Part shown: piece after piece, positions 28,130 through 44,700 of the stretch
Numbering within the stretch: position 1 is the stretch's first letter
How the letters are laid out: each line of letters opens with the position of its first letter
Origin: Candidatus Omnitrophota bacterium
Lineage (GTDB): Bacteria; Omnitrophota; Gorgyraeia; Zapsychrales; JANLHA01
Direction: 5' to 3'
Length of the DNA stretch: 64,000 bases
Assembly: GCA_020632535.1 (NCBI GenBank)
Contig: JACKFJ010000004.1
Span: 105,514-169,513 of the forward strand
The notes under the pieces: generated by a model
The model's database searches: none
What the model saw: the letters and a program-made list of their open reading frames with translations, nothing else
Told to the model about the DNA's origin: nothing
Translations under genes and position numbers: made by a program

Positions 28130-28366
28130 TTTCCGTACCGTACAATCGGTACTGCCATTGCGAGGAGGCCTTTAGGCCGACGCGGCAAACTAAAAAACCC
28201 ATTGCGAGCCCGAAGGGCGCAGTTATCATTGCGAGGAGTTCCGCAGGAACGACGCGGCAATCTGTTTTGTCATTCCCGCAATCTCTTGGCGGGAATCCAT
28301 GGCACTGACAGTAACGCCTCTCATACTTCCATACTTCGCAAAAGGGTCTGTCCCCTTCTTGCGCCC
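28130..28366. repeat. cluster of dispersed hairpin (REP-like) repeat units at the left edge of the RHS island
   Basis: Units: cattgcgagGAGGCCTTTAGGCCgacgcggcaa, cattgcgaGCCCGAAGGGCgc, cattgcgaggaGTTCCGCAGGAACgacgcggcaat and gtcATTCCCGCaatctcttgGCGGGAATcc. The same modules occur at 36.5 and 44.4 kb, and inverted at 59.9 and 61.2 kb. Confidence 0.85.
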
Positions 28367-28368
28367 AA

Positions 28369-28764
28369 TTATTCTTCAAATTTAGATAATTCATTATTCA
28401 AATCAGTGCATAACCTCTCTGGATCCACAACGACACCTTTTGACACAACAGTTGGGAAAACGCCAACTCTCCTTTTGTCTTTAATCATTCCAGGAATCCA
28501 TCTATCTAACCAATCTTGCAAAATAATAAATCGAGGAGCACAATCTTTCCATTCATCGTTCGCACATAATTTTGCATATTCGCTATGCGACCAAACTGGG
28601 ATAACTTCATTCCCATTAGCATCCAAAGCTGAAACCCAACCATCTTTATTTCTTAACGCCCATACCTTTTCCGAATCCGCAACCCTTTTAATAAAATAAG
28701 AATATCTTTCTGCCCCAGCTAAATTAACAACAGATTGAATTTCATGAATACTGAGAATAGCCAT
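28369..28764 (-). CDS. DUF2750-like putative immunity protein (for displaced toxin tip CT4)
   Basis: KVWALRNKDGWV...IPVWSHSEYA...LQDWLDRWIPGMIKDKRRVGVFP matches my memory of DUF2750. The start abuts the CT4 stop. Confidence 0.6.
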   Translation of the reverse strand: MAILSIHEIQSVVNLAGAERYSYFIKRVADSEKVWALRNKDGWVSALDANGNEVIPVWSHSEYAKLCANDEWKDCAPRFIILQDWLDRWIPGMIKDKRRVGVFPTVVSKGVVVDPERLCTDLNNELSKFEE

Positions 28765-29249
28765 CTAATATCCCTCAACTTTATGTTGCAGTTTATGTAA
28801 ATCTATATCTTGCAAATCACTATGTTCATATCCATATCCTTGTTTGGCTTCTTTCCCTCGTCGATGAGCTAATTGTTTTGTCGGAGGAACTCTAATTTTT
28901 GATCTTTGTCCTCTCTCGATACTATTAATATCTTGTTTTATCCATCCTTTGTCAGATTTAGAAACATTTTTATCAGTTAATAAACTTTTCAATTTTTGTT
29001 GTTTGCCTGTACGACCGGAAATCTTACATATACCCTTCGCAACTTTTCCTCCCCCTTGTACATAACCTGCCCCTCCAGGCAAAAATGGAGTACCTAACGC
29101 GACAGAATCATATGCCAGTGATGCTCCCGTCAATAGACCGGGTTCAGTTAAAAAATAGTATAAACTCAACTGCCAAGTAACATAATCGGAAGGTGTTTCA
29201 ACGATTAACCCATACGGATCAACAAAATTGATCGGATCGCTTTCGACAT
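28765..29249 (-). pseudogene. displaced RHS C-terminal toxin tip CT4 (HNH/EndoVII-like?), severed from its core by the transposon
   Basis: Reads (V)ESDPINFVDPYGLIVETPSDYVTWQLSLYYFLTEPGLLTGAS...KGIC, identical to the main RHS protein. It then has a unique tail: ...KGWIKQDINSIERGQRSKIRVPPTKQLAHRRGKEAKQGYGYEHSDLQDIDLHKLQHK. No upstream core remains; the transposon end is at 29250. Confidence 0.7.
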
Positions 29250-29350
29250 GATACCGTCGAAGAACCCTGCATTTCCAAGTGGACGGACTTTCCGTCCTTT
29301 TTAAAAGAGCAAATTTATCACGACACAGCTATACCGTGTCTTTTAATCTC

Positions 29351-30979
29351 CTAAAATCCCATCACCACCTCCGCTTGTCCTGCAAATCCTTCCAAAACTA
29401 ACTTAATCCACCGCTTAATATTCACGGCAGCGGCAGTGAATAATGCCTGCAATTGTACTTTTGGTAATCCTCGATACTTCGCCCGTCTTAGACCGTGATA
29501 TCGTGTCAATTCTGATAACTTTCCTTCGATCGGCGGACGTAATTTCATATCTTTTTTAAATTCATCCGTTTTGTTGTAGATTTCGGCCTCCCGCAACTCC
29601 TTATTAAACATGCTTATTCCTACTGTCCGTCGCCCTTCCTCAGCTTTGGTACATTCTTTTCTCACCGGACACTTCCTGCACACGCTCATTGGAAAATGAA
29701 ATTGTTTCAACCCATGCTGATGATCTTCAAAATAGGTATTTGTCTTCACACCCTGCGGACATGTTAACGTCAGCGTTTTTTCATCATAATGAAACAAGCT
29801 TTTCGGATAAACTTTTTGAGTAGATTGATTTGCATTCCGCAACGGCGCAACCATCATTGTCGCATTATCATTTAACAGTTTTCGATGCACCCCATTCGCG
29901 TAAGCCGTGTCACCGATTAATTTCTGCGGTACAAGGCCGCTCTTCTTTTGTTCCACTATCATTTGTACTGTCGGCTCACCATCAGGGCGGTTACCGCGCA
30001 TAACATTAATGTTGGTTATAAAATGATTCTCGACAGCCTCCGTCACATTCGCCTTATACCCCACAAATCGTTTTGTGTCTGACTTACATCCATAGCGGGC
30101 ATCCTCGTCGATTGGACTTACCAATAAATCCTTCGGCTTGTCTTTATATTCCCGCTCTTCAATCTTTTCTTGTGATTCTTTGACGTTTTCCTGTAAAATT
30201 CGCTTTAACATCTCGATCCGTTTTCTCAAATCACGGCCAACATTTGCACCTTCTATTTCTTCCAAAACACATCGCGCGTCCATCACTACTTTTACCAGTT
30301 TTACTTTGCGCTTTTCAATATCTAATCGCCCCTCATCGGCCTGATTTACTTTTTCCCGTGTATATTCTGCCATATCAATCTTTCCAAGAATCTTTTCGTA
30401 AACTTTTGGCTTCTGCCCTTTAAGCGGTTTTAATATCTCACGGACACCTTTCTTAACCAGCGCAACCACCGTCGGAATCGCAATATCTGCGATCATGTGG
30501 GTCGCATCAATCCGCTGAATCTCATCGCGCTTGATTAACTCTAAATCAATTAATCGATTTAAAACTTTATCAAAGATCATCTTGCTCTGGCCATTGTCCA
30601 ATAAGCGTTTCCTAAAATCTCCCAAACTTGAATGGTCGAATGGGCGCTCGTTAAGTTTTAATCCAAGCGCGTATTTGATTTCAATATCGTACATACAAGC
30701 CCGTTCCATCTCGCGATCAGAAAGATTTTTATGAAATTGCAACAGCAAAACCATTGCTAATAATTTCGGCGAGATCGGCGGACGCCCATTGTCCTGACAA
30801 TACATCGTTTCAAAATCTAATTCATCCATCAGAGGGGAGACAATTTCTTTGAACTTACGGTAATAACTTTCGGCAGGAATCAGTTCTTCGCAGAGATACT
30901 CGGCATCATAAAACGAAGCTTGTCGTTGGGGATTTTTGAGCATTCTGAAGTCTCCTTTGCGGTTGTTTATTAGCTCCAT
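29351..30979 (-). CDS. IS1182-family-like (IS5 superfamily) DDE transposase
   Basis: N-terminal DUF772-like region (ISPKLLAMVLLLQFHKNLSDREMERACMYDIEIKYALGL). DDE candidates are RIDATHM, LIGDTAYANG and IEGKLSELTRYHGLRRAKYRG. 542 aa. Confidence 0.8.
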   Translation of the reverse strand: MELINNRKGDFRMLKNPQRQASFYDAEYLCEELIPAESYYRKFKEIVSPLMDELDFETMYCQDNGRPPISPKLLAMVLLLQFHKNLSDREMERACMYDIEIKYALGLKLNERPFDHSSLGDFRKRLLDNGQSKMIFDKVLNRLIDLELIKRDEIQRIDATHMIADIAIPTVVALVKKGVREILKPLKGQKPKVYEKILGKIDMAEYTREKVNQADEGRLDIEKRKVKLVKVVMDARCVLEEIEGANVGRDLRKRIEMLKRILQENVKESQEKIEEREYKDKPKDLLVSPIDEDARYGCKSDTKRFVGYKANVTEAVENHFITNINVMRGNRPDGEPTVQMIVEQKKSGLVPQKLIGDTAYANGVHRKLLNDNATMMVAPLRNANQSTQKVYPKSLFHYDEKTLTLTCPQGVKTNTYFEDHQHGLKQFHFPMSVCRKCPVRKECTKAEEGRRTVGISMFNKELREAEIYNKTDEFKKDMKLRPPIEGKLSELTRYHGLRRAKYRGLPKVQLQALFTAAAVNIKRWIKLVLEGFAGQAEVVMGF

Positions 30980-31018
30980 TATAACTCATTCTCCGTCGAC
31001 AAATAGGCATTTTGTGAA

Positions 31019-31255
31019 TTATTTTGTTTGCTGATTTCTTTCAAATATACCTACTACACCAATTAGAGAATCCTTGGTTAACAAATTATAATCCTCTAAA
31101 TGAACGTGTCCTTGATTGGGCTTTGCAATAAGTTTTAGAATCAAATCTGAGAGCTTTTGAAGACCTTCTTTTGTTCCATAAACACAAACCTCATTATTCT
31201 CAAATCTCAACTCTAAAGTTTTATCCTTAAAATCAGGTTTTCTAAATTCTGACAT
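31019..31255 (-). CDS. 78-aa immunity-like protein for CT2 (transposon cargo)
   Basis: Starts 12 nt after the CT2 stop, behind aagggaaag. It is small and cytoplasmic, and sits in the position of an immunity gene. Confidence 0.55.
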   Translation of the reverse strand: MSEFRKPDFKDKTLELRFENNEVCVYGTKEGLQKLSDLILKLIAKPNQGHVHLEDYNLLTKDSLIGVVGIFERNQQTK

Positions 31256-31270
31256 TTCTTTCCCTTTCTT

Positions 31271-32490
31271 TTACCACGTCCACCAGTGGGGATGTCCCCA
31301 AGGCTTTCCGTGATGAGCTTTATCCAATCTAAATCCCCATTTAAATCGTTTACTTAATATCCTAAAAATATTATTACCTTGTTTACCTATTTCAATTCCT
31401 GCATAGTCAGCCGCAATTGCTACTGCTGTTGCTCCTGCTGCTGTCCCGACGGCAATTCTTTCACCCGTTTTTTCCCATCCGCATGATCCTTCCGTATACT
31501 TCATCGGATCGCCCCAACCTGTCGGACCATTTGATCCCCACTCCGACATCGGTTGGCCGTATGGACCCGGTAATGCGCTTTCATAAAACCACCAATTAAA
31601 TTGATCTTCCCCCCAATACAATCCAAGCGGATCTATTCTATTAATAGGATCGTTGCCGGTGTAAGCGTAAAGGTTGGTTTCGGAGATAAGTTTTCCGACA
31701 CTATCAACATAACCGTATAGATCAACATCTCCCCCATCAAACCCAATCGGGTCTTTGGCGGTCCAGCGGCCGGTTGCGGGGTCGTAGTCACGAAAACCAA
31801 ATCGGACTAAACCAATATCCCGATCATGTAAACCTCCCGCAAAACCAAACGGGACAGTAAATGTCGGGGCGGTGTCAGCGAGAATGTTTCCAAATGAGTC
31901 ATAATCAATTCGTTTAACGATTGCGCCAGTTGAACTCATCACAGCACGCAATGATCCAACTTGATCATAGCTCAAATAATACGTCGCGCTGTCCTTGGTC
32001 ATCACACTCGGCATACGACTATCCGAGTACTCAAAGCGCATCAAAAGATTATCTGATCCGTCATAAACAGCTAAGAGCTGTGTTAATCCCGCCCAGAGAT
32101 ATTTTTCAATGACCGAACCGTTAATCTTCTTGGCGATACGACGACCCAAAGGATCATGGACATATTCAATCGTCCGTCCGTCGGGCAAAGAAACATTTAA
32201 CAACTCACCGCGAGATGAATAATTGTACGTCGTTATAGACGAACCATCAGTTTTACGCGATAAGAATCCATCGGCATCATATTGATACGTCACACTGCCA
32301 ACGCTTAAGAGCTGATCTTCCGCATTGTATGTCAAAGAACGCCCGGCAATGCCGCGCAGAGAGTTCATTTCATAAGTGCGCGTGCCTAACGGATTAGAAC
32401 CAGTATATCGATACTCCTCAACGAGAGCATTGTCTTTTTCAACGTGTGTCAGACGGCCAGTGGCATCGTACGTGTAAACGGTATTTGACG
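31271..32490 (-). pseudogene. 5'-truncated orphan RHS core fragment A fused in frame to transposon-borne toxin tip CT2
   Basis: The open frame from about 32497 (..NTVYTYDATGRLTHVEKDNALVEEYRYTGSNPLGTRTYEMNSLRG..) is homologous to main RHS residues from about 1985 onward. At DVDLYGYV it continues into element-encoded DSVGKLISETNLYAYTGNDPINRIDPLGL plus a roughly 115-aa tip. Confidence 0.75.
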
Positions 32491-32534
32491 AACTAAATTA
32501 GGTGTGACCCCTTTTTCTTTTCTTTGGAATTATT

Positions 32535-32837
32535 TTAGTACGACTGTATTAAGGATTTTGTTTCATAACAATCGAAGCAAATAAAGACATAAATCAATCC
32601 ACAATCCGCAAGAGAATATTCTGGACCGATAGTATCAAGTTGTGCATAAAAACTCATATCGTGCTTACAAGAATCACAAATCGGGACATCACTTTCTTGA
32701 ATAAATTCAGGTTTCCCACCAATCTTATGCCGTTTCCCTTGTATTGGATTTTCTATACTCCAATCAAATGGTTTTATCGATTTTGCCTCAGTACTATTTG
32801 GCACCAAATTAATTTTAAACTCGGGAAGTACTTTCAT
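32535..32837 (-). CDS. DUF1963/YwqG-like putative immunity protein (for CT3)
   Basis: KIGGKPEFIQESDVPICDSCKHDMSFYAQLDTIG...DCGLIYVFICFDC resembles the C-terminal signature of the YwqG family. It starts 14 nt after the CT3 stop. Confidence 0.5.
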   Translation of the reverse strand: MKVLPEFKINLVPNSTEAKSIKPFDWSIENPIQGKRHKIGGKPEFIQESDVPICDSCKHDMSFYAQLDTIGPEYSLADCGLIYVFICFDCYETKSLIQSY

Positions 32838-32851
32838 ATATAGTTCTCCTC

Positions 32852-33360
32852 TTATTTATATGATTGTATAGGCAAGCCACTTAAACCATATTCGTCCATT
32901 AATTTTCCACCAAATTGGTAAATATCCTGAGGGGTGGCGTTCGGGTTACTCTTTATAAAGTTCTCCCATCGTTCGTTCCATTTGCCGGGCATATTATTTA
33001 GTCCATTCCCGTGAACACCCTTAAGATGTGCTGTATTCTGCGGAATAGATACAGTAAATTTGTCAATATCTATACCCTTCGAGTTAAAGAATGGTTTAAA
33101 TCTTTGCGGGAATATGTGGTGTTTTGCCATTTTAGGAGCGGTAAGTAAACAAATTTTACTTGCACCTTGGGCATACCCTCCCCCACCGGGCAGAAAAGGA
33201 AGGCCTAACGCTACTGAGTCATAAGCTAACGACGCCCCAGTCAACAAACCTGGTGCAGTTGTAAAATAATAAAAACTTAACTGCCAAGTAATATAATCGG
33301 AAGGCGTCTCGAAGACTAGCCCCTCTGGATCCACCCCGTTTACCGGATCATTGAGAACAT
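32852..33360 (-). pseudogene. displaced RHS toxin tip CT3 (HHIFPQ..WN..W..F type, AHH/DUF2380-like?), severed by the transposon
   Basis: Reads (V)LNDPVNGVDPEGLVFETPSDYITWQLSFYYFTTAPGLLTGAS..., then KHHIFPQRFKPFFNSKGIDIDKFTVSIPQNTAHLKGVHG...KWNERWENF. The transposon end is at 33361. Confidence 0.7.
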
Positions 33361-33461
33361 GATACCGTCGAAGAACCCTGCATTTCCAAGTGGACGGACT
33401 TTCCGTCCTTTTTAAAAGAGCAAATTTATCACGACACAGCTATACCGTGTCTTTTAATCTC

Positions 33462-35090
33462 CTAAAATCCCATCACCACCTCCGCTTGTCCTGCAAATCC
33501 TTCCAAAACTAACTTAATCCACCGCTTAATATTCACGGCAGCGGCAGTGAATAATGCCTGCAATTGTACTTTTGGTAATCCTCGATACTTCGCCCGTCTT
33601 AGACCGTGATATCGTGTCAATTCTGATAACTTTCCTTCGATCGGCGGACGTAATTTCATATCTTTTTTAAATTCATCCGTTTTGTTGTAGATTTCGGCCT
33701 CCCGCAACTCCTTATTAAACATGCTTATTCCTACTGTCCGTCGCCCTTCCTCAGCTTTGGTACATTCTTTTCTCACCGGACACTTCCTGCACACGCTCAT
33801 TGGAAAATGAAATTGTTTCAACCCATGCTGATGATCTTCAAAATAGGTATTTGTCTTCACACCCTGCGGACATGTTAACGTCAGCGTTTTTTCATCATAA
33901 TGAAACAAGCTTTTCGGATAAACTTTTTGAGTAGATTGATTTGCATTCCGCAACGGCGCAACCATCATTGTCGCATTATCATTTAACAGTTTTCGATGCA
34001 CCCCATTCGCGTAAGCCGTGTCACCGATTAATTTCTGCGGTACAAGGCCGCTCTTCTTTTGTTCCACTATCATTTGTACTGTCGGCTCACCATCAGGGCG
34101 GTTACCGCGCATAACATTAATGTTGGTTATAAAATGATTCTCGACAGCCTCCGTCACATTCGCCTTATACCCCACAAATCGTTTTGTGTCTGACTTACAT
34201 CCATAGCGGGCATCCTCGTCGATTGGACTTACCAATAAATCCTTCGGCTTGTCTTTATATTCCCGCTCTTCAATCTTTTCTTGTGATTCTTTGACGTTTT
34301 CCTGTAAAATTCGCTTTAACATCTCGATCCGTTTTCTCAAATCACGGCCAACATTTGCACCTTCTATTTCTTCCAAAACACATCGCGCGTCCATCACTAC
34401 TTTTACCAGTTTTACTTTGCGCTTTTCAATATCTAATCGCCCCTCATCGGCCTGATTTACTTTTTCCCGTGTATATTCTGCCATATCAATCTTTCCAAGA
34501 ATCTTTTCGTAAACTTTTGGCTTCTGCCCTTTAAGCGGTTTTAATATCTCACGGACACCTTTCTTAACCAGCGCAACCACCGTCGGAATCGCAATATCTG
34601 CGATCATGTGGGTCGCATCAATCCGCTGAATCTCATCGCGCTTGATTAACTCTAAATCAATTAATCGATTTAAAACTTTATCAAAGATCATCTTGCTCTG
34701 GCCATTGTCCAATAAGCGTTTCCTAAAATCTCCCAAACTTGAATGGTCGAATGGGCGCTCGTTAAGTTTTAATCCAAGCGCGTATTTGATTTCAATATCG
34801 TACATACAAGCCCGTTCCATCTCGCGATCAGAAAGATTTTTATGAAATTGCAACAGCAAAACCATTGCTAATAATTTCGGCGAGATCGGCGGACGCCCAT
34901 TGTCCTGACAATACATCGTTTCAAAATCTAATTCATCCATCAGAGGGGAGACAATTTCTTTGAACTTACGGTAATAACTTTCGGCAGGAATCAGTTCTTC
35001 GCAGAGATACTCGGCATCATAAAACGAAGCTTGTCGTTGGGGATTTTTGAGCATTCTGAAGTCTCCTTTGCGGTTGTTTATTAGCTCCAT
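33462..35090 (-). CDS. IS1182-family-like DDE transposase (copy B)
   Basis: Identical 542-aa product to 29351..30979. Confidence 0.8.
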   Translation of the reverse strand: MELINNRKGDFRMLKNPQRQASFYDAEYLCEELIPAESYYRKFKEIVSPLMDELDFETMYCQDNGRPPISPKLLAMVLLLQFHKNLSDREMERACMYDIEIKYALGLKLNERPFDHSSLGDFRKRLLDNGQSKMIFDKVLNRLIDLELIKRDEIQRIDATHMIADIAIPTVVALVKKGVREILKPLKGQKPKVYEKILGKIDMAEYTREKVNQADEGRLDIEKRKVKLVKVVMDARCVLEEIEGANVGRDLRKRIEMLKRILQENVKESQEKIEEREYKDKPKDLLVSPIDEDARYGCKSDTKRFVGYKANVTEAVENHFITNINVMRGNRPDGEPTVQMIVEQKKSGLVPQKLIGDTAYANGVHRKLLNDNATMMVAPLRNANQSTQKVYPKSLFHYDEKTLTLTCPQGVKTNTYFEDHQHGLKQFHFPMSVCRKCPVRKECTKAEEGRRTVGISMFNKELREAEIYNKTDEFKKDMKLRPPIEGKLSELTRYHGLRRAKYRGLPKVQLQALFTAAAVNIKRWIKLVLEGFAGQAEVVMGF

Positions 35091-35129
35091 TATAACTCAT
35101 TCTCCGTCGACAAATAGGCATTTTGTGAA

Positions 35130-35366
35130 TTATTTTGTTTGCTGATTTCTTTCAAATATACCTACTACACCAATTAGAGAATCCTTGGTTAACAAATTAT
35201 AATCCTCTAAATGAACGTGTCCTTGATTGGGCTTTGCAATAAGTTTTAGAATCAAATCTGAGAGCTTTTGAAGACCTTCTTTTGTTCCATAAACACAAAC
35301 CTCATTATTCTCAAATCTCAACTCTAAAGTTTTATCCTTAAAATCAGGTTTTCTAAATTCTGACAT
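35130..35366 (-). CDS. 78-aa immunity-like protein for CT2 (copy B)
   Basis: Identical to 31019..31255. Confidence 0.55.
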   Translation of the reverse strand: MSEFRKPDFKDKTLELRFENNEVCVYGTKEGLQKLSDLILKLIAKPNQGHVHLEDYNLLTKDSLIGVVGIFERNQQTK

Positions 35367-35381
35367 TTCTTTCCCTTTCTT

Positions 35382-36498
35382 TTACCACGTCCACCAGTGG
35401 GGATGTCCCCAAGGCTTTCCGTGATGAGCTTTATCCAATCTAAATCCCCATTTAAATCGTTTACTTAATATCCTAAAAATATTATTACCTTGTTTACCTA
35501 TTTCAATTCCTGCATAGTCAGCCGCAATTGCTACTGCTGTTGCTCCTGCTGCTGTCCCGACGGCAATTCTTTCACCCGTTTTTTCCCATCCGCATGATCC
35601 TTCCGTATACTTCATCGGATCGCCCCAACCTGTCGGACCATTTGATCCCCACTCCGACATCGGTTGGCCGTATGGACCCGGTAATGCGCTTTCATAAAAC
35701 CACCAATTAAATTGATCTTCCCCCCAATACAATCCAAGCGGATCTATTCTATTAATAGGATCGTTGCCGGTGTAAGCGTAAAGGTTGGTTTCGGAGATAA
35801 GTTTTCCGACACTATCAACATAGCCATACAGATCAACATCTCCCCCATCAAAGCCGATTGGGTCTTTGGCGGTCCAGCGGCCGGTTGCGGGGTCATAGTC
35901 ACGAAAACCAAACCTGACTAAACCAACATCCCGATCATGTAAACCACCGGCAAAACCAAACGGAACACTAAATGTCGGGGCAGTATCGACAAGGATGTTT
36001 CCAAATGAGTCATAATCAATTCGTTTAACGGTTGCGCCAGTTGAACTCATCACAGCACGCAATGATCCAACTTGATCATAGCTCAAATAATACGTCGCGC
36101 TGTCCTTGGTCATCACACTCGGCATACGACTATCCGAGTACTCAAAACGCATCAAAAGATTATTTGATCCATCGTAAACAGCTAAGAGCTGAGTTAATCC
36201 GGCCCAGAGATATTTTTCAACAACGGAACCGTTAATCTTTTTAGCGATACGACGACCCAGAGGATCATGAATATATTCGATCGTCCGTCCGTCGGGTAAA
36301 GAAACCTGCAACAATTCTCCACGGGACGAATAATTGTACGTCGTTATAGACGAACCGTCAGTTTTACGCGACAAGAATCCGTCAGCATCATATTGATACG
36401 TCACACTGCCAACGCTTAAAAGCTGATCTTCCGCATTGTATGTCAGAGAACGCCCGGCAATGCCGCGCAGAGAGTTCATTTCATAAGTGCGCGTGCCT
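35382..36498 (-). pseudogene. 5'-truncated orphan RHS core fragment B fused to transposon-borne CT2
   Basis: Homology to the main RHS gene ends at 36498, where a REP cluster begins. The core part is closer to the main gene than fragment A is (for example QVSLPDGRTIEYIH, SNNLL). Confidence 0.75.
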
Positions 36499-36506
36499 TG
36501 TTAGTA

Positions 36507-36632
36507 GGCACCATTGCGAGGAGGCCTTTAGGCCGACGCGGCAAACTAAAAAACCCATTGCGAGCCCGAAGGGCGCGGCAATCTATTCCAAGTTTGTCAT
36601 CCCCGAAATCTCTTATCGGGGATCCATTTGCT
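36507..36632. repeat. REP-like hairpin cluster between the main RHS module and the orphan array
   Basis: Same modules as at 28.15 kb, minus one unit. The terminal hairpin ATCCCCGAaatctcttaTCGGGGAT covaries with ATTCCCGC..GCGGGAAT. Confidence 0.85.
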
Positions 36633-36753: not shown

Positions 36754-37068
36754 TTATTTTATTTCAAAATTAATTAATGTTTTGGGATATACAATTATAT
36801 AGATATTCTCATTAACCCCTCGATATGCAATCTTTGCTAGTTTTAGCAAATCTTTACTTATCAAATATTCTTCAATCTTTCTAAAAGTTCCCAACGGGTT
36901 ATCAGTTAGTATAAAGTAATTAATTTCTCCTGAACCTATATCATGCCCATCAACATCCTCATCACAAAGCATCTTATTCAAATCATTTTCAATTTCACCC
37001 AATTTTTTAAAACAAATTTCTGACTCAGGAAACTGAACAACAAATTGATATTTCATATTGTCTCCCAT
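36754..37068 (-). CDS. putative immunity protein for the main RHS toxin (CT1)
   Basis: Begins 5 nt after the RHS stop (alternative start MKYQF at 37056, behind gggag). About 100 aa and acidic, with no signal peptide. Confidence 0.55.
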   Translation of the reverse strand: MGDNMKYQFVVQFPESEICFKKLGEIENDLNKMLCDEDVDGHDIGSGEINYFILTDNPLGTFRKIEEYLISKDLLKLAKIAYRGVNENIYIIVYPKTLINFEIK

Positions 37069-37073
37069 CGTGA

Positions 37074-40000
37074 TTAGTATGGTGGAACTTTATACCCAAT
37101 TCTTTTTTGAAATTCAATATACACGCTTTGTCCTTCTTCAGGCCCTATTGGCAAATACTTATGCAGGTCACTTTCCAAACTCAACATATCCTTCTTATTC
37201 CCAGATGTTAATATTTTTAATTTTCCTCCATCTAGTTCCTTAGCAGTGTATCGACTTGCAGGATTCTTTGATATACCATATTTTAAGTGCTTCCCAGCTT
37301 TATCTAGTTTTTGATACAAGTAGACACTATCATGGGCTGTAGATTTTGTTAAATTACATATACCCTTCGCAACTTTTCCTCCCCCTTGTACATAACCTGC
37401 CCCTCCAGGCAAAAATGGAGTACCTAACGCGACAGAATCATATGCCAGTGATGCTCCCGTCAATAGACCGGGTTCAGTTAAAAAATAGTATAAACTCAAC
37501 TGCCAAGTAACATAATCGGAAGGTGTTTCAACGATTAACCCATACGGATCAACAAAATTGATCGGATCGCTTTCGACATAACCGTATAGATCAACATCTC
37601 CCCCATCAAACCCGATCGGGTCTTTGGCGGTCCAGCGGCCGGTTGCGGGGTCATAGTCACGAAAACCAAACCTGACTAAACCAACATCCCGATCATGTAA
37701 ACCTCCCGCAAAACCAAACGGAACACTAAATGCCGGAGCGGTGTCAGCGAGAATGTTTCCAAATGAGTCATAATCAATTCGTTTAACGATTGCGCCAGTT
37801 GAACTCATCACAGCACGCAATGATCCAACTTGATCATAGCTCAAATAATACGTCGCGCTGTCCTTGGTCATCACACTCGGCATACGACTATCCGAGTACT
37901 CAAAGCGCATCAAAAGATTATTTGATCCGTCATAAACAGCTAAGAGCTGAGTTAATCCCGCCCAGAGATATTTCTCAACGACCGAACCGTTAATCTTTTT
38001 GGCGATACGACGACCCAGAGGATCATGAATATATTCGATTGTCCGTCCGTCGGGTAAAGAAACCTGCAACAATTCTCCACGGGACGAATAATTGTACGTC
38101 GTTATAGACGAACCGTCAGTTTTACGCGACAAGAATCCGTCAGCATCATATTGATACGTCACACTGCCAACGCTTAAAAGCTGATCTTCCGCATTGTATG
38201 CCAAAGAACGCCCGGCAATGCCGCGCAGAGAGTTCATTTCATAAGTGCGCGTGCCTAACGGATTAGAACCAGTATATCGATACTCCTCAACGAGAGTATT
38301 GTCTTTTTCAACTTTTGTCAGACGACCCAAAGAGTCGTAAGTATAAACATAATTGGACGTAATCCCCGCGACGGTTTCACTCTTGGTTGCGATCTGACCA
38401 TTATTATTGTATGTCAGAGTCCACGAACCAGCGGCGGCGCTATTGACGGTTTGCGATTGAGTTGTCACCTCACCAAAACCATTAAACGTCCGGCCCAAGT
38501 TCAAAGCCCCACCGATCACGGCCGTCGGTAAACCATTTTGCGCGTTACGAGTAATCGAAAATATACCCGATGACGTCAATAGCCCGTCATTGTCATATCC
38601 AAAACTATTCGTTGCCCCAGCGTAAGTAAAACCGGCAATTTTAAGATCATTATTAAACGTAAAGGCAAGCGTCTGTGCCAGCGTTCCGGTGGACACGACT
38701 GTTTTTGGCAGACTGCCGTCGTAAGTGTAAGCGATCGACTCGCCGCTTTTGGTGATCGATGCCAATTGCCCTGAAGGTAAATATGTCGGATCAACATTCC
38801 CCTCCGGCGTCTGCACCTGTGTCAACTGCACGCCGGTATAAATGTTCTTAATCTTTTTGCCTGATGGGAAATTAACTTCCTTTAAACGCCGCTCTTTATC
38901 ATAAACATACTGCGTTGACAATGAAATCGGCGGAGCATAACTCGTCGGTAAGTTCACATTATTGTAAATATATCCGTGATTCTGACTCGACGGATTTGTC
39001 AGCACTGTCATATTGCCGTTTGCGTCATAATCAAAACGGACATTGGTCGTATCCGGACGATTAATGGCTTTGAGACGGCCGACGGCATCATAAGTGTAAC
39101 TTGTGCGATTGCCTCTAGGGTCAGTCACCGATTGCACATTCCCAGCCAAATCATAAATCAAAGACGTTGTCCGTGTCCCAGCGACCACAGTGTTAACTCG
39201 GCCCTTAAAGTCATAGGTATACGACGTATCGACTAACCCGGGCACACTGACCTTGGACGTCAAAAGTGTCGTGGGATCATAAACCGCAGTGACTTTCCGG
39301 CCAAGCGGAGACATGGCAGTAAAAGTCGATGTTATGGTGTCATGCGTCACCGTGGACGTCTTATTATTTAACGACGCGGTGCGAACAATGCGATCAATCT
39401 TTTGATCATTGTTTGTGTCGGTATAGGTTCGATTATAAACAACCTGTGCCTTTAATCCGGCGGGGGTTGTTATGGTAGACGTTTTAAGATATTTGAACTT
39501 GTATTTTGGATCAATATCAAAATTAAAATCTTGAACGGTCAAGTCCGGAGAGGTTACTTTGGCAATCAATTCATTGGCAGTCCGCGTAAAAATCGTCGGC
39601 TTTGTCACGCCGGACACTGAACTTGTCGCCGTCCATGTGCCGTCGGCCGAAATCTGATCCACGTAAGTGACGATGTTGCCTTCGGCGCTGGTCACGGTTG
39701 TTGTTACATCGCCGCTATTGCTTTGAATCTGCTGAGCAAACTTTTCATGCCCGCCTTCTTGGTCCTGAACATCGGTGATACGGCCGTTCGAATTGAAAGT
39801 GTGGGTGAAAAAATTGCCTTTGGGTTCCGTCTCTTTGGTTAAAAGACCCCCGGCAGAGTACTCAAACTTATAGAATTGTCCGTCCGGATAGGTTATCCGT
39901 GTTAAATGCTTGCTAGAGTCGATCGTGAGATTCGTCCGTACACCATCGGGGGAAACGATCGCAGTCGGAACCCCAGCACCGTTGCGCTCAACCGTTATTT

Positions 40001-43000
40001 TATTATTAAAAAGATCCGTCGATGATACTAATCGACCTGAAGCATCGTAATCAAATTGTTCAAGAACTTTTTGAGTGTCCAGATCGACCGTTTGTTTGTG
40101 TTTTCCATCAAGCGAGAATACATAGCCAACGCCTTCTTCAGCGAATGTCATATCCCCGGGGTCGGCGGGGGTCAAGGATATTGTGGCAGTAATTTTACGG
40201 ATACGGTGATTATGTGAATCCGCAAAATAAACATTCCCAAGATTATCAAGTGTTAACTCCTGTGGATTAGCGATCTGCGCTATAATCGCAGGATAATTAT
40301 CTCCATTATATCCAAAAACACCGTTTCCTGCGATTGTCGTAATGATGCCAGTAGCATCAATTTTACGAATCCGACTATTTTCTGAATCAGAAAAATAAAT
40401 ATTCCCAAGTTTATCAAGTTCGAGTCCGCTAGGGTGGGAAATTCCTGCCTCTGCGGCTAGGCCGCCATCTCCGCTATATTCTCGCCTGCCAGTTCCTGCA
40501 ATCAACCTAAGAATTCCTTCTGAGTCTATTTTAAAGATGCGATCACTTATTGTATCCGCAAAATAAATATTCCCATTTTCATCAGTCGCCAATCCAGAGG
40601 GATAGGTTATTGGAGTATTTACAGCTAATACCCCACTTCCTGGATAACCCCAAGACCCCTTTCCAGCAATAGTTTTGATCACACCATCGGTATCAATTTT
40701 ACGAATTCGGAAATTCTCCTTATCGAGAAAATAAATATTCCCGTTTTGATCAACCGCCACACTAGTGGGAGAATTTAACTTCGCCGCTATCGCCGGACCG
40801 CCATCTCCGCTGTATCCTCCACTGCCGTAAGCCCCAATAAATCCTGTTCCAGCAATTGTTTTAATAACACCACTTACATCTACTTTGCGTATACGATGAT
40901 TGCCAGAATCGGCAATCAAAATATTTCCATATTGATCAACCGTAATTCCCGAGGGATTATTTAATTGAGCTGCAGTGGCTGGGCCGCCATCTCCGCTGTA
41001 TCCTCCCGCACCTGTCCCAGCAAAAGTCTGAATAATTCCACTTAAATCAATTTTACGAATACGATTATTTTCCGAAATATAAATATTCCCGTTCTGATCA
41101 ACCGCCATATATACAGGGTAATTTAAATTCGCCTTATCGGCTGGGACACCATCTTCACTGTATCCACCTACACCTGTTCCCGCGACAGTTGAAATTATGT
41201 ACACACCATTGTTGTTCACAACATCGCCATTTCCCTTGTAAAGGGTACTTATATCTCGCGCGCTCATATAATGGTGATTGGATAGTGTCCACCCTTCGGC
41301 TAAACCTTCACGTGCTTGCGCTTGGTTGTATACGAGAAAACTCTGTTTTTTAGAATACATATACTCATCCCGAGCAGGAACAGCTGATTGCGAGACTCCG
41401 GGGAGACCGAATACTGCTGGTCTAACGCCCCCACCGAATGCCGAATACATCATATTGTATACAAATTCGGTCGTGATATACGCAGTGGCAGAGTTCACTC
41501 GGTGGCCTAAATGATCTAAACCATCCCAGCTGAATTCCGCAATTTGATTCGCTGATGCCGGTAAGATCTTCTCAAATGTCCGGCCAGCGATATCTACTCT
41601 AACAACGATCCTTTTGAGGGAAGGCGGAACCGTTGCGCCGCTTGCAGGAACCGTAATGATTGTTTTGTAGTCAGGAACGCGGTTGCTGGCGAAATGAAGA
41701 GTTAGACCCGTACCGGGGATAGCAATATCTTCATGGTAAATTCGGCTGCGGCAATTGACATACGAATTGACTGACTTGTCACAATCTTCGTCTTTTTTCT
41801 TTTGTTGATCCACATTGGGTGTCCCAGTCGCGTTGGGCGCGATCGCATCCGCCGAAACAAAGATCGGCCAATTGAGATCCCACGGCGTAAAATGCGTAAT
41901 ACTTGCCCGCCAAAACGTTTTGCCGGATGCATACTTGGCGGGATCATCCAAGCCCTTAACTTCGTCGGTAAAATCCCCGTTACTGTTAAGATCATTCGGC
42001 AAGCCATCATTGTCAGAATCAAGCGCATCCACGATGCCGTCGCTGTTCGTGTCCAAAAGCTTAACCACACGGCCATTATCCGACGCAACCCATTGACCGC
42101 GATCGCGGTCATAATATCCGACGGGCACAATCTCACCTACGTCAAACCCAAGAAAATTATCAACATAAAAAACAACAGGATCTTTAAATCTTACCCGATC
42201 GACACCATCGGCTTTAAGCTCGACACAATATGTAAAAGCAGATGTGGGCGGCAGGACAGCCGGCATAGACGCAGGCGTCGTAAACTCCGTGGCGCGTATG
42301 CTCAACTTTGTCAACTCAAGCATGTCATTGCCGTTTTCATCAACGGCGTACGCCTTATTGTCGCCGACAATAACAACGTTTGCCTGACGGATACCAGAAA
42401 CATCTGTCACGGGAGTGCTCTGGTGGACAATGACACTGGTGGCATCACCATTGAGCGTAACTGTTGTAGCCTTTGCATCTTCGACGAGCATCGTAACTGT
42501 TTCGACAATAGCGATGTCATTAGGGGCAACATGAACCTGCCGATGACTATCGATATAGCCTTGTTTTGTGAAAACAATATTTAATGTCCCGTTGCTGTCA
42601 ACGGGTAAAGAAAATTGACCTTTTGAATCCGTCTTCGCAGTACCGAACTTTGAATTACGATCTACGACAATTGCGACATCGGGAAGCGGCGCGTTATTTT
42701 TATCCTTAACTTCTCCGCGAACGACCGCAAAGCGCTTGATATCGTATTCTTTGACTGTTGAATCAGTTGGAATAATCTCCTTATACTGCGCGCCAAATGT
42801 TCCTTCCGGCGGTGTAATCGGAGCCCCCGTGACATAAACTGTCACCTTTTCATTAACAGAACCCAAAGATCCCGTCGCGGTGATCGTATAGGTCGTTGTA
42901 ACTTTTGGCGAAATAGTCAAAGTTCCGCTATTGGCAACTAAGCCGATCCCATTGTCTACATATAGGGAGGACGCGTTCGTGGATGTCCAGCTCAAGTTCG

Positions 43001-44243
43001 TTGATGCGTCGCTTTGAATTGTCTGTGGGTTGGCGAAAATGGTCACGGCCGGTTTTATTTCTAAAACAGATAATGTCACACTCTTGGTGTCCGTACCACC
43101 CTGTCCGATCGCGGTAACTGTATATGTTGTTGTCGTTGTCGGGGAAACTGAGATATTGCCAATTGATACAACACTACCAATGTCCGGTGTAATTGTACAG
43201 GTATCGGCATCGGTGCATTGCCAACTTAAAGTAGCTGTTTGGCCTTGAGAAATCGACGTCGGATCTATCATAATACTTGCCGTCGGTACGGAAACTTGAG
43301 AATCCGATAAAGTTGTTGCCTTTGTGACGTGCGACTTTTTGCCTTCGCCGGTTGAATTGACGGCCGCTACCGCAAAATAATACTGAGTGTCTCCCTCAAG
43401 ACCCGCAACAATATATTGCGTTACATTATCGACAACAACGGGTGTTCCAAAAACATTCGGTGATGTGCCATAATAAATTTTGTATGACGTCGCGCTGGGC
43501 ACAGCATCCCATATTAATTTGACTTGATTAATTTCGCCAACCGCCGAATGGATGTGCGGACGTCTCGGCAAAGTGAGCGCACTTTTTTCATTGGATTTAG
43601 GACTTACTCCACCCAAATTGATAGCTGATACTTTAAAATAATACGTTGTCCCGCTCTTTAGCCCTCTGACGGTGTGCGTTGTGACATTGTTGACAAGTAC
43701 AATGCGCCCAAAGCGGCCTTGCGCTGATCGAAGATAAATTTTATACCACTTTGCGCCTGTGACCGCGCTCCAATTTAATGTGGCTTGATGATTTCCACCG
43801 ATGACTGTATTTAAAACGGGAGCCGTTGCAATGTCAGGAAATGTCGTCCCACTTTTTTCTTTAGATTTTGGACTTTCTTGTTTTGAATCGATAGCTGTCA
43901 CAGCCAAATAATAAGTCGTCCCAGACTTAAGGCCGGTTAAATTAACTACAGGTACTTGCCCAACCTTGATCGAAGCTCCGTAAACACCTGATGATGTGCC
44001 GTAATACACTTTGTAGGACTTGGCACCAGATACTGGAATCCATGTCACAAGCAATTGATTGGAGCCGCCTATTACGGAAAGAATTGTTGGGGGGTTAATG
44101 ATGGAAGAAAACGCTTCTGCCGAACCGACGCCGATTTTGCCGACTGAGAAAAAAGTGGAGAATAAATAAATTAGGAGTGTAAATGACTTGATTAAGAAAA
44201 AACGCGCGCGCATGGGCTGGGTTTTGTTTTTTTGGTTCGACAT
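37074..44243 (-). CDS. teneurin-like RHS/YD-repeat polymorphic toxin (2389 aa)
   Basis: Domain order: signal/TM; four FN3-like repeats (SGTTYYLAVTAID, SGTTYYFKVSAIN, DTQYYFAVAAVN); two Ig-like repeats; a carboxypeptidase-regulatory-like domain (GEVKDKNNAPLPDVAIVVD..TDSKGQFSL); a TSP3-like Asp-rich motif (DSDNDGLPNDLNSNGD); about six NHL repeats (SGDGGPA..LN.P.G..VD..GNIY..D..N.RIRKI); a long YD-repeat shell; the RHS end motif DVDLYGYVESDPINFVDPYGL; a hydrophobic TG linker; and a roughly 80-aa tip. Confidence 0.9.
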   Translation of the reverse strand: MSNQKNKTQPMRARFFLIKSFTLLIYLFSTFFSVGKIGVGSAEAFSSIINPPTILSVIGGSNQLLVTWIPVSGAKSYKVYYGTSSGVYGASIKVGQVPVVNLTGLKSGTTYYLAVTAIDSKQESPKSKEKSGTTFPDIATAPVLNTVIGGNHQATLNWSAVTGAKWYKIYLRSAQGRFGRIVLVNNVTTHTVRGLKSGTTYYFKVSAINLGGVSPKSNEKSALTLPRRPHIHSAVGEINQVKLIWDAVPSATSYKIYYGTSPNVFGTPVVVDNVTQYIVAGLEGDTQYYFAVAAVNSTGEGKKSHVTKATTLSDSQVSVPTASIMIDPTSISQGQTATLSWQCTDADTCTITPDIGSVVSIGNISVSPTTTTTYTVTAIGQGGTDTKSVTLSVLEIKPAVTIFANPQTIQSDASTNLSWTSTNASSLYVDNGIGLVANSGTLTISPKVTTTYTITATGSLGSVNEKVTVYVTGAPITPPEGTFGAQYKEIIPTDSTVKEYDIKRFAVVRGEVKDKNNAPLPDVAIVVDRNSKFGTAKTDSKGQFSLPVDSNGTLNIVFTKQGYIDSHRQVHVAPNDIAIVETVTMLVEDAKATTVTLNGDATSVIVHQSTPVTDVSGIRQANVVIVGDNKAYAVDENGNDMLELTKLSIRATEFTTPASMPAVLPPTSAFTYCVELKADGVDRVRFKDPVVFYVDNFLGFDVGEIVPVGYYDRDRGQWVASDNGRVVKLLDTNSDGIVDALDSDNDGLPNDLNSNGDFTDEVKGLDDPAKYASGKTFWRASITHFTPWDLNWPIFVSADAIAPNATGTPNVDQQKKKDEDCDKSVNSYVNCRSRIYHEDIAIPGTGLTLHFASNRVPDYKTIITVPASGATVPPSLKRIVVRVDIAGRTFEKILPASANQIAEFSWDGLDHLGHRVNSATAYITTEFVYNMMYSAFGGGVRPAVFGLPGVSQSAVPARDEYMYSKKQSFLVYNQAQAREGLAEGWTLSNHHYMSARDISTLYKGNGDVVNNNGVYIISTVAGTGVGGYSEDGVPADKANLNYPVYMAVDQNGNIYISENNRIRKIDLSGIIQTFAGTGAGGYSGDGGPATAAQLNNPSGITVDQYGNILIADSGNHRIRKVDVSGVIKTIAGTGFIGAYGSGGYSGDGGPAIAAKLNSPTSVAVDQNGNIYFLDKENFRIRKIDTDGVIKTIAGKGSWGYPGSGVLAVNTPITYPSGLATDENGNIYFADTISDRIFKIDSEGILRLIAGTGRREYSGDGGLAAEAGISHPSGLELDKLGNIYFSDSENSRIRKIDATGIITTIAGNGVFGYNGDNYPAIIAQIANPQELTLDNLGNVYFADSHNHRIRKITATISLTPADPGDMTFAEEGVGYVFSLDGKHKQTVDLDTQKVLEQFDYDASGRLVSSTDLFNNKITVERNGAGVPTAIVSPDGVRTNLTIDSSKHLTRITYPDGQFYKFEYSAGGLLTKETEPKGNFFTHTFNSNGRITDVQDQEGGHEKFAQQIQSNSGDVTTTVTSAEGNIVTYVDQISADGTWTATSSVSGVTKPTIFTRTANELIAKVTSPDLTVQDFNFDIDPKYKFKYLKTSTITTPAGLKAQVVYNRTYTDTNNDQKIDRIVRTASLNNKTSTVTHDTITSTFTAMSPLGRKVTAVYDPTTLLTSKVSVPGLVDTSYTYDFKGRVNTVVAGTRTTSLIYDLAGNVQSVTDPRGNRTSYTYDAVGRLKAINRPDTTNVRFDYDANGNMTVLTNPSSQNHGYIYNNVNLPTSYAPPISLSTQYVYDKERRLKEVNFPSGKKIKNIYTGVQLTQVQTPEGNVDPTYLPSGQLASITKSGESIAYTYDGSLPKTVVSTGTLAQTLAFTFNNDLKIAGFTYAGATNSFGYDNDGLLTSSGIFSITRNAQNGLPTAVIGGALNLGRTFNGFGEVTTQSQTVNSAAAGSWTLTYNNNGQIATKSETVAGITSNYVYTYDSLGRLTKVEKDNTLVEEYRYTGSNPLGTRTYEMNSLRGIAGRSLAYNAEDQLLSVGSVTYQYDADGFLSRKTDGSSITTYNYSSRGELLQVSLPDGRTIEYIHDPLGRRIAKKINGSVVEKYLWAGLTQLLAVYDGSNNLLMRFEYSDSRMPSVMTKDSATYYLSYDQVGSLRAVMSSTGAIVKRIDYDSFGNILADTAPAFSVPFGFAGGLHDRDVGLVRFGFRDYDPATGRWTAKDPIGFDGGDVDLYGYVESDPINFVDPYGLIVETPSDYVTWQLSLYYFLTEPGLLTGASLAYDSVALGTPFLPGGAGYVQGGGKVAKGICNLTKSTAHDSVYLYQKLDKAGKHLKYGISKNPASRYTAKELDGGKLKILTSGNKKDMLSLESDLHKYLPIGPEEGQSVYIEFQKRIGYKVPPY

Positions 44244-44364: not shown

Positions 44365-44700
44365 ACCATTGCGAGCCCGAAGGGCGCAGTTATCATTGCG
44401 AGGAGTTCCGCAGGAACGACGCGGCAATCTGTTTTGTCATTCCCGCGACCTTTGGAAGCACCCGGTACGAGGGTGCAATCTCTTGGCGGGAATCCACAAT
44501 TTTAAATATGGATCCCCGATAAAAGCATTCGGGGATGACAAATGTGAAGCATTCGGGGATGACAAATGTGAAGCATTCGGGGATGACAAATGTGAAACAT
44601 TCGGGGATGACAAGAATGGATTGCTTCGTCGCTTCGCTCCTCGCAATGGGACTCAGTTCAGTCGCAATGAGATTTAGTTCGCTCCTCGCAATGGGATTCA
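44365..44700. repeat. REP-like hairpin cluster plus 24-bp tandem repeat at the right edge of the RHS island
   Basis: 44367-44498 repeats the 28.2-kb module in the same orientation, with a 29-bp insertion in the last hairpin loop. 44524-44612 holds about 3.7 tandem copies of agcattcggggatgacaaatgtga. gctcctcgcaatggg occurs twice. Confidence 0.85.

Follow-up and report, generated by a model that had tools for sequence, protein, structure and literature searches.

A probable IS1182-family unit transposon that brings an RHS toxin tip, together with an immunity gene, in frame into the end of the RHS core

Introduction

In the RHS locus of a Candidatus Omnitrophota bacterium the same 2.46-kb block of DNA occurs twice, each time at the same codon of the boundary between RHS core and toxin tip, and the sequences that flank the two copies differ. 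What is this block, and how did two copies of it come to lie at equivalent sites in different surroundings? The window, by which we mean the whole stretch of 64,000 nt that was analysed (contig JACKFJ010000004.1, positions 105,514-169,513, assembly GCA_020632535.1), holds both copies together with an uninterrupted RHS gene. We conclude, with a probability of roughly 85%, that the block is a unit transposon of the insertion sequence (IS) family IS1182, which would carry a toxin tip with its immunity gene and insert in frame at the end of the RHS core. The observations behind this reading, all taken from sequence, are the anatomy of the element, the identity of its copies, the restored empty sites, the conserved ends, the recurrence of the target in many unrelated loci and the mobility of the whole unit.

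Two identical copies and their empty sites

Every gene of the RHS array that is relevant here is carried on the minus strand of the window. Downstream of the main RHS gene lie two orphan modules, each composed of a core fragment, the 2.46-kb block, a tip that starts in the middle of the core-end motif, and a small open reading frame (ORF). The two copies of the block, A and B, are identical over a run of 2,466 nt (29246-31711 for A and 33357-35822 for B), and the identity drops abruptly at both ends. The ends of the element itself were set by its relatives and by a 5-bp target duplication; from the left inverted repeat to the right inverted repeat it measures 2,456 bp, and identity between the copies stops within 6 bp (0-6) of these ends on both sides. 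The features that bear on the insertions are the following.

37074-44243, minus strand: main RHS gene, uninterrupted, 2,389 aa
37564-37580, minus strand: target site TATGTCGAAAGCGATCC at the core end of the main gene, the only one in the window that is both intact and unoccupied
35822-36479, minus strand: orphan RHS core fragment B, which forms a 365-aa ORF (35382-36479) with the element tip that continues its frame; stops lie in frame upstream
35817-35821, minus strand: left target duplication of copy B, ATGTT, the final bases of the RHS codons TAT GTT
33361-35816, minus strand: element copy B, 2,456 bp
33356-33360, minus strand: right target duplication of copy B, ATGTT
32852-33360, minus strand: displaced tip CT3, VLNDPVNGVDPEGL..., DUF2380-like by Pfam match, severed from its core by copy B
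31711-32497, minus strand: orphan RHS core fragment A
31706-31710, minus strand: left target duplication of copy A, ATGTT
29250-31705, minus strand: element copy A, 2,456 bp, identical to B
29245-29249, minus strand: right target duplication of copy A, ATGTC, whose fifth base is unlike that of the left one
28765-29249, minus strand: displaced tip CT4, VESDPINFVDPYGL..., Ntox8, whose first 226 nt equal the main-gene tip
28369-28764, minus strand: CT4 immunity gene, DUF2750 by Pfam match

On the coding strand, copy B reads ...GAT CTG TAT GGC TAT GTT, followed by GATAGTGTCGG ... CGACGGTATC and then by ATGTT CTC AAT GAT CCG. Removal of the element and one ATGTT yields GAT GTT GAT CTG TAT GGC TAT GTT CTC AAT GAT CCG, which is translated as DVDLYGYVLNDPVNGVDPEGL. 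The same operation on copy A restores DVDLYGYVESDPINFVDPYGL, as found in the uninterrupted main gene at 37560-37600, and the 226 nt to the right of the reconstructed junction are identical to the main gene. An earlier note on this DNA had proposed that both insertions hit the same codon and that the empty sites can be reconstructed; both removals do restore an intact core-to-tip junction, that of A being the junction of the main gene. Its description of the downstream flanks as two different toxins also stands, CT3 being DUF2380-like and CT4 an Ntox8 tip followed by its DUF2750 immunity gene. Two of its values have to be corrected: the divergence of the upstream flanks, given as about 10%, is 7.6%, and the duplication is not the 4-bp ACAT but 5 bp long (AYGTN).

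Over 670 nt of RHS core upstream of the insertions, A and B share 92.4% identity, A and the main gene 94.9%, and B and the main gene 96.0%. Downstream, A and B are 67% identical over about 230 nt, beyond which lie unrelated toxins. With 0 differences in the 2,456 bp of the element against 7.6% divergence in the core flanks, and with different displaced tips, two independent insertions at RHS core ends, in the same orientation and in frame, are by far the simplest reading of the window, as the earlier note had argued. This remains the best reading whether the orphan modules were hit directly or were hit while they still formed, one after the other, the end of the main gene, before their displacement. 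In an independent assembly (Logan SRR12358676, L001) the element stands alone on a 2,441-bp contig that ends at the duplication, which is typical of a repeat with different flanks. The same contig ends 19 nt before the left end of the element, though A and B share that stretch; this hints at another copy or variant in the sample whose sequence close to the left repeat is different.

Anatomy of the element

Read along the coding strand, the element consists of a left inverted repeat, an RHS tip frame without a start, a putative immunity gene, a DDE transposase gene and a right inverted repeat, GTTTTCnGACGGTATC. Its first base continues the reading frame of the host RHS gene into DSVGK(P), a short linker, the element's own core-end motif NLYxY..NNPxNxxDPxGL and a small predicted toxin.

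35801-35816, minus strand: left inverted repeat of copy B, GATAGTGTCGGAAAAC, 16 bp, coding in frame for D-S-V-G-K and mismatched at 0-2 positions in relatives
35382-35816, minus strand: element RHS tip, 144 aa plus stop, without its own start codon; DSVGKLISETNLYAYTGNDPINRIDPLGL followed by 115 residues that form the toxin part
35130-35366, minus strand: putative immunity gene, 78 aa
33462-35054, minus strand: IS1182-family DDE transposase, 530 aa; an upstream ATG at 35090 gives 542 aa
33361-33376, minus strand: right inverted repeat of copy B, GTTCTTCGACGGTATC (minus strand), 16 bp
29250-31705, minus strand: the same parts in copy A, namely right inverted repeat 29250-29265, transposase 29351-30943, immunity gene 31019-31255, tip 31271-31705 and left inverted repeat 31690-31705

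The left repeat matches the reverse complement of the right one at 12 of 16 positions in the window and at 13 of 16 in relatives. The transposase contains the Pfam domains DUF772 (7e-20), DDE_Tnp_1_6 (5e-24) and DDE_Tnp_1 (4e-07), and is 100% identical to a protein (P0001) from a Candidatus Omnitrophica metagenome-assembled genome (MAG) that is named 'IS1182 family transposase' at NCBI. Public gene calls begin at the second methionine, and an exact look-up of the 542-aa form returned no match. When the tip of the window was used as a protein query, only 14 short matches were obtained. An ORF of 542 aa at 57634-59262 was considered as a third copy and rejected, as it is unrelated to the transposase.

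Two short sequences inside the element were noticed in passing. Directly 5' of the transposase gene is a block, TTTGTCGACGGAGAATGAGTTATAATGG (35091-35125 and 30980-31014), which contains a perfect TATAAT and a core, CGACGGAGAA, that resembles the inner terminal repeat; it is kept in L001, L002, L003 and L017 and occurs only in the closest relatives. It may serve as a promoter or as a binding site for the transposase, or it may be what is left of an earlier left end. Some 30 nt inward from the right end, a hairpin, GGACGGACTTTCCGTCC, is followed by TTTTT on the plus strand (33392-33408 and 29281-29297) and is kept in L002 and L003; it would terminate antisense transcription that enters from the right flank.

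Relatives share their ends and, at RHS junctions, orientation and frame

Relatives were gathered by exact look-up, from species genomes and from metagenomes, and comprise about 90 public loci (L-numbers) with transposases that are 50-89% identical to that of the window. A scan of genome contigs with a single protein gave 3 loci; the metagenome scan with alignment was far more productive, whereas a search with a profile of the junction peptide returned short fragments only. Elements measure 2.2-2.96 kb when a tip frame and a small ORF lie between the left repeat and the transposase gene, and both terminal repeats are almost invariant over the roughly 90 loci. Once duplicates are removed, an open RHS frame with the ending ..NLYxYV precedes the element at 39 of 54 distinct left junctions, and 51 of 69 distinct right junctions continue with V.NNP.N..DP.GL; a few RHS junctions, for example that of L003, were missed through misclassification by the pattern. 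All RHS junctions share orientation and frame, and the host RHS genes are otherwise dissimilar in DNA. The collection of insertion sites that the earlier note had called for therefore reveals a recurrent codon, orientation and frame. Position counts give T-A-Y N-N-N T-A-Y G-T-N, the element, and N-N-N A-A-Y R-A-Y C-C, with third codon positions free, and this family-wide motif replaces the narrower target, TAYGGYTATGT, that the note had read from the two sites in the window.

Named hosts include Omnitrophota, MAGs of Bdellovibrionales and Pseudobdellovibrionaceae (Bdellovibrionota), and Geobacter anodireducens/soli; many loci come from metagenomes. In several hosts no stop interrupts the upstream frame over hundreds of residues, as far as the retrieved DNA extends. 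The note had also suggested a search for strains in which the main RHS gene itself carries the element. In L062 nine RHS-repeat matches lie in an upstream frame that stays open over at least 881 aa, so the element also sits in long, probably complete RHS genes.

In a midpoint-rooted neighbour-joining tree, which is approximate, the association with RHS genes spans the whole transposase clade. A cargo-less form of 2,016 bp (L065-L070) is nested inside the RHS-associated clade, which suggests that this form lost its cargo. The IS1182-family transposases that sequenced plasmids carry share only about 30% identity with this clade, so that an annotated close relative is absent from the plasmid collection. 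The cargo-less form has a 5-bp duplication, AAAGT, and its host is a repeated sequence, AATTGGTCCAGTGGTAAAGT ..., which in L066 flanks the element in inverted copies; the short frame after its left repeat resembles a decayed DTVGK..N.Y...NP leader. In L073 (1677-1714) a right and a left repeat abut with 6 bp between them (GTTTTCAGACGGCATC ACGACT GATACTGTCGG). These abutted ends may represent a tandem pair or the junction of a circular intermediate, and the latter would suggest copy-out/paste-in transposition.

Mobility of the whole unit

A 2,569-bp relative is present three times, without a single difference, at different sites of one 3.36-Mb contig.

L006: in an RHS gene, duplication ATGTT on the left and ATGTT on the right
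L007: in an RHS gene, duplication ATGCC on the left and ATGTC on the right
L008: in a CitMHS transporter gene, duplication ACACC on the left and ACACC on the right

If the L008 copy and one ACACC are removed, a 418-aa ORF is restored across the junction. On the evidence of these copies, tip, immunity gene and transposase have moved as a single unit. A repeat search for a smaller IS bounded by inverted repeats inside the block gave nothing convincing, and a smaller IS close to the transposase gene was rejected as the mobile unit because it is the outer ends that bear the duplication and that moved together in L008.

The three copies also settle how long the duplication is. Immediately before GATAG, L006 has a T, whereas L007 and L008 have a C, and in all three copies this base matches the fifth base of the right flank; it therefore belongs to the duplication, which is 5 bp long. 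We rejected the alternative of a 4-bp duplication followed by a variable first base of the element, since the base tracks the right flank in three otherwise identical copies. The 5-bp duplication is perfect at about 21 sites and matches at 4 of 5 positions in 10 more, the differences falling mostly at two synonymous positions. These imperfect duplications probably reflect later mutation or recombination between copies.

Target recognition and selection

The explanation that survives best beside the one we prefer concerns the cause of the insertion bias. The enzyme may have only a loose preference for about AYGT, and the concentration at RHS ends would then result from the survival of useful or harmless in-frame insertions. 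The duplications do vary (ATGTN, ACGTN, ATGCC, ACACC and TGGTC), copies outside RHS genes exist (L008, L022 and others), and the open and conserved tip frames point to selection on the fusion product. However, the verified off-target site in L008, GTA TAC ACC CAT AAT AAC CCT, fits the extended motif: it has the TAY codon and, at the correct spacing, 8 of 8 positions of AAYRAYCC. By chance, a full AAYRAYCC box would lie 4 nt downstream of the duplication at about 1 site in 16,000. High AAYRAYCC scores are also far more frequent in other non-RHS flanks, including those of the cargo-less form, than in background sequence, and the cargo-less relatives, which gain nothing by fusion, still adjoin similar boxes (7 of 8 positions in L069). 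Within the one genome that carries three copies, two are at RHS ends.

Further evidence against a loose preference comes from the element's own sequence. L027 (34-177) contains three exact tandem units of 48 nt and L046 (127-210) two units of 42 nt, each unit comprising the left repeat and linker up to the TAYGCN pseudo-target of the element itself (TAT GCC and TAC GCA, respectively). Such units are the footprints to be expected if elements inserted into their own motif and the copies then recombined. In the window, the relaxed pattern TAYGTNNNNANYRAYCC is intact once in 64 kb, at the end of the main RHS gene, where 0.05 occurrences are expected by chance; the remaining two instances are split by copies A and B, and all three are RHS core ends. 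Many insertions, including both in the window, lie in short orphan fragments from which no toxin is delivered, although this argument for targeting is weaker, as the fragments may be former gene ends that were displaced later.

The off-target site, the self-insertion footprints, the orphan hosts and the occupancy of sites favour recognition of DNA, and the transposase itself probably reads an asymmetric target of about 17 bp. We regard a loose preference combined with survival as unlikely. Nevertheless, selection on the fusion product must also act, because the tip frames are open and DPxGL is kept in nearly all elements. The target-site selectivity for RHS core-end DNA that the earlier note took the two sites to imply is thus supported; the bias may stem wholly from target recognition by the enzyme, or in part from selection for fusions that work.

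Other explanations for the window

A second alternative is that the element inserted once, that the orphan module was then duplicated, and that gene conversion homogenised the two copies of the element while the sequences around them changed by divergence or replacement. Recombination does occur in RHS arrays: the core flanks in the window are mosaic, 226 nt of CT4 equal the main-gene tip, and the left duplication of A has the fifth base of B (T), which a conversion tract could explain. The earlier note had pointed out that a single insertion with subsequent duplication needs additional recombination, and the measured boundaries bear this out. The conversion tracts would have to end within 0-4 bp of one end of the element and within 1-6 bp of the opposite end, and the displaced tips, which are different toxins with different immunity genes, would require exact replacement. 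Had the element diverged as the flanks have, its 2,456 bp should contain about 187 differences; there are none. A second insertion in the window is also unremarkable in view of the dozens that occurred independently at this codon elsewhere. We consider duplication with conversion very unlikely.

It is less likely still that the orphan modules arose by ordinary displacement of tips, through homologous recombination with a cassette that carries a core fragment, and that an unrelated IS happens to lie beside the immunity gene. The accepted view is that orphan arrays form by homologous recombination (Jackson et al. 2009, PMC2935791), and IS elements are common in such loci. However, the incoming block has no core homology at its left edge; the identical sequence sets in with the left repeat, 5 bp past the TAY codon. 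The block opens with an inverted repeat of its right-edge sequence, the 5-bp duplication is present on both sides, and the sequence to the right resumes the interrupted codon. The same block also moved into a transporter gene in L008. That the duplicated element is an artefact of MAG assembly has a negligible probability: chimeric MAG contigs do occur around repeats, but assemblers collapse repeats and do not duplicate them with different flanks, the flanks here are coherent RHS modules, and the same architecture occurs in about 90 independent assemblies, including the 3.36-Mb contig.

Proposed mechanism and cargo

As the comparison of sequences shows, the element inserts with a 5-bp duplication, AYGTN, at the Tyr-Val codons that close the RHS core, TAY NNN TAY GTN / NNN AAY RAY CC. 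With the orientation fixed, the frame of the host RHS gene reads through the left repeat into the tip of the element. Under the preferred reading of a tip-carrying unit transposon, the resident tip and its immunity gene would be pushed downstream of the right repeat and presumably lose translation. In a single step the RHS shell would gain a new toxin and the cell the matching immunity gene, which would amount to C-terminal displacement by transposition and not by homologous recombination. The fusions would then be translated, processed and toxic. In the window, two independent insertions would have entered paralogous orphan modules, the third site, in the main gene, being still empty.

The cargo of the relatives fits this proposal. 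The roughly 90 loci contain about 45 distinct pairs of tip and small ORF. Tips are 90-190 aa long and often glycine-rich or cysteine-rich, and the small ORFs are often membrane proteins. Nearly all of the approximately 45 tips have the core-end motif NLYxY..NNPxNxxDPxG(L) ahead of a variable region, with a few degenerate or truncated. One relative has a tip with a Tlde1/YkuD domain, a known antibacterial toxin family. The first 84 aa of the window tip are 87% identical to those of L002, and the transposases of the two are 89% identical, but the toxin end and the small ORF are unrelated. Conversely, L014 and the window have the last 32 tip residues in common and small ORFs that are 50% identical, while their transposases are only 65% identical. 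Modules are thus shuffled between elements, with toxin end and small ORF co-varying, and the small ORFs probably confer immunity. Motifs noticed by eye in tips that have no Pfam match include CCIKHDLCY (phospholipase A2-like, L024), HSG...GGCIRT (YkuD-like, L032) and HEYVH (metallopeptidase-like, L081).

Several observations weigh against this account of the element. Both copies in the window are in orphan fragments with in-frame stops upstream, so that a full-length toxin is not made there. The window tip has no recognised toxin domain (no Pfam match), and the immunity gene is called from an Imm32 match of 24.3 bits, where the cut-off is 27, together with its co-variation with the toxin end. 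Insertion adds 17 residues between the aspartate of the host DPIG and that of DPxGL, a spacing relevant to self-cleavage. The duplication of copy A is imperfect (ATGTT on the left against ATGTC on the right, 4 of 5), and about one third of the duplications in the family differ at the two synonymous positions; in copy A, the T at the fifth base of the left duplication could stem from a synonymous change, from conversion over a very short tract, or from a 4-bp stagger that took one donor base along. Only one clean insertion outside RHS genes with a restored gene was found (L008). Finally, we infer transposition, target recognition, toxicity and immunity from sequence.

We lean, with less confidence than in the reading of the element itself, towards the wider view that these loci represent a widespread, undescribed class of IS1182-derived elements. 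These would be self-mobilising cassettes of tip and immunity gene that recognise RHS-end DNA in one orientation and frame, use their repeat as a linker, and re-arm the delivery protein of the host while supplying the matching immunity. The arrival of tips at polymorphic toxin genes has so far been explained only by homologous recombination with hypothetical circular cassettes; if our reading is correct, there is also a transposase-driven mechanism for C-terminal displacement in these loci, and a selfish element that spreads across phyla by means of a toxin/immunity pair and a conserved coding target. Since no homology with the resident gene is needed, tip and immunity gene could cross between distant RHS lineages and phyla. 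The element would belong to a rare kind of bacterial transposon, one whose insertion creates a protein fusion and whose inverted repeat doubles as coding sequence, and its DDE transposase appears to have an asymmetric target of about 17 bp. New small antibacterial toxins and their immunity genes can be mined from metagenomes by a simple signature that consists of the DSVGK leader and the conserved 16-bp ends. If targeting is a property of the transposase, it may be of interest for programmable in-frame tagging.

Relation to known systems

Simple IS of the IS1182 family are about 1.3-1.95 kb long and have the transposase as their sole gene (ISfinder). The transposase domains and inverted repeats of the RHS element fit this description, whereas its size and cargo do not, except in the 2,016-bp form (L065-L070). 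Because the cargo lies between the left repeat and the transposase gene, the element is better described as a unit transposon derived from the IS1182 family than as a plain IS. The closest structural precedent is TnSha1, a staphylococcal unit transposon that consists of IS1272 (IS1182 family) and sh-fabI (Furi et al. 2016, PMC4923244; Wan et al. 2017, PMC5678879). In both cases an IS1182-family transposase is present, and a single IS moves a passenger that lies upstream of the transposase gene, with the left repeat beyond the passenger. The TTTGTCGACGGAGAATGAGTTATAATGG block 5' of the transposase gene in the closest relatives resembles the inner repeat and in this recalls the third repeat of TnSha1. 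However, TnSha1 and IS1272 use hairpin targets without specificity for primary sequence and delete the target without a duplication. The RHS element has a 5-bp duplication, a target defined by primary sequence, a single orientation, an in-frame position in coding sequence and a left repeat that is translated; the empty sites of the window copies and of L008 are reconstructed without loss of target.

RHS C-terminal displacement and orphan tip/immunity arrays were reportedly also treated by Koskiniemi et al. in 2014. As in such displacement, which is the closest precedent in biological terms, the new pair of tip and immunity gene is joined here at PxxxxDPxGL and the old pair is left downstream, silent. 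Displacement at the rhs C-terminus has been attributed to homologous recombination via core fragments with a hypothetical circular intermediate (Jackson et al. 2009, PMC2935791). Unlike the module in that model, the incoming module here has inverted repeats, a transposase and a target duplication, and it needs no core homology. IS-like elements of the H-rpt / ISAs1 family are habitually found within E. coli Rhs loci, as a separate component downstream of the tip region. The RHS element resembles them in being an IS-like element within Rhs loci, but we know of no H-rpt that carries a tip, inserts in frame or targets the core end.

Conserved sequences provide safe and widely available landing sites for Tn7 at glmS, for inteins and for group I and II introns. 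Tn7 avoids the disruption of genes, inteins and introns splice out, and homing elements lie in frame in conserved motifs. The RHS element, in contrast to all of these, stays and replaces the end of the host protein with a domain of its own. As described by Ocasio and Cotter (2019, PMC6350997), a Burkholderia thailandensis CDI (contact-dependent growth inhibition) locus is borne on a transposon. Both cases tie a polymorphic-toxin system to a transposable element; the whole cdi locus is the cargo in B. thailandensis, whereas only tip and immunity gene move with the RHS element, which needs a resident delivery gene. Full-text searches of open-access papers gave no description of an IS with RHS tips as cargo or with in-frame insertion at the end of the core, and Zhang et al. 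2012, examined for transposase and transposon, describes no such element. In the element, an IS-derived unit transposon and an RHS tip cassette, each of a known kind, are combined.

The surrounding RHS array

The protein encoded by the main RHS gene has Fn3-like and NHL-like repeats followed by the RHS shell, as judged by eye from the translation. Two small ORFs complete the array.

36754-37068, minus strand: small ORF downstream of the main RHS gene
32535-32837, minus strand: small ORF after CT3, a putative immunity gene, with only a weak match to DUF1963

The start of CT4 is identical to that of the main tip over 226 nt (29024-29249 equals 37354-37579), after which the two continue into different toxins. 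CT3 has the same leader of about 70 aa (ETPSDY.TWQLS...GASLAYDSVALG.PFLPGG) at lower identity. This indicates that recombination breakpoints lie inside the tips, at a pre-toxin segment common to CT4, CT3 and the main tip.

Short GC-rich repeats (CCATTGCGAGCCCGAAGGGCGC..., TTTGTCATCCCCGAA...) bracket the RHS array at 44366-44620, 36511-36627 and 28155-28300, that is, upstream of the main gene, after the main immunity gene and after the last orphan module. At 44523-44613 a 24-bp unit is present in 3.8 tandem copies. The repeats may mark the boundaries of modules or represent a small non-autonomous element.

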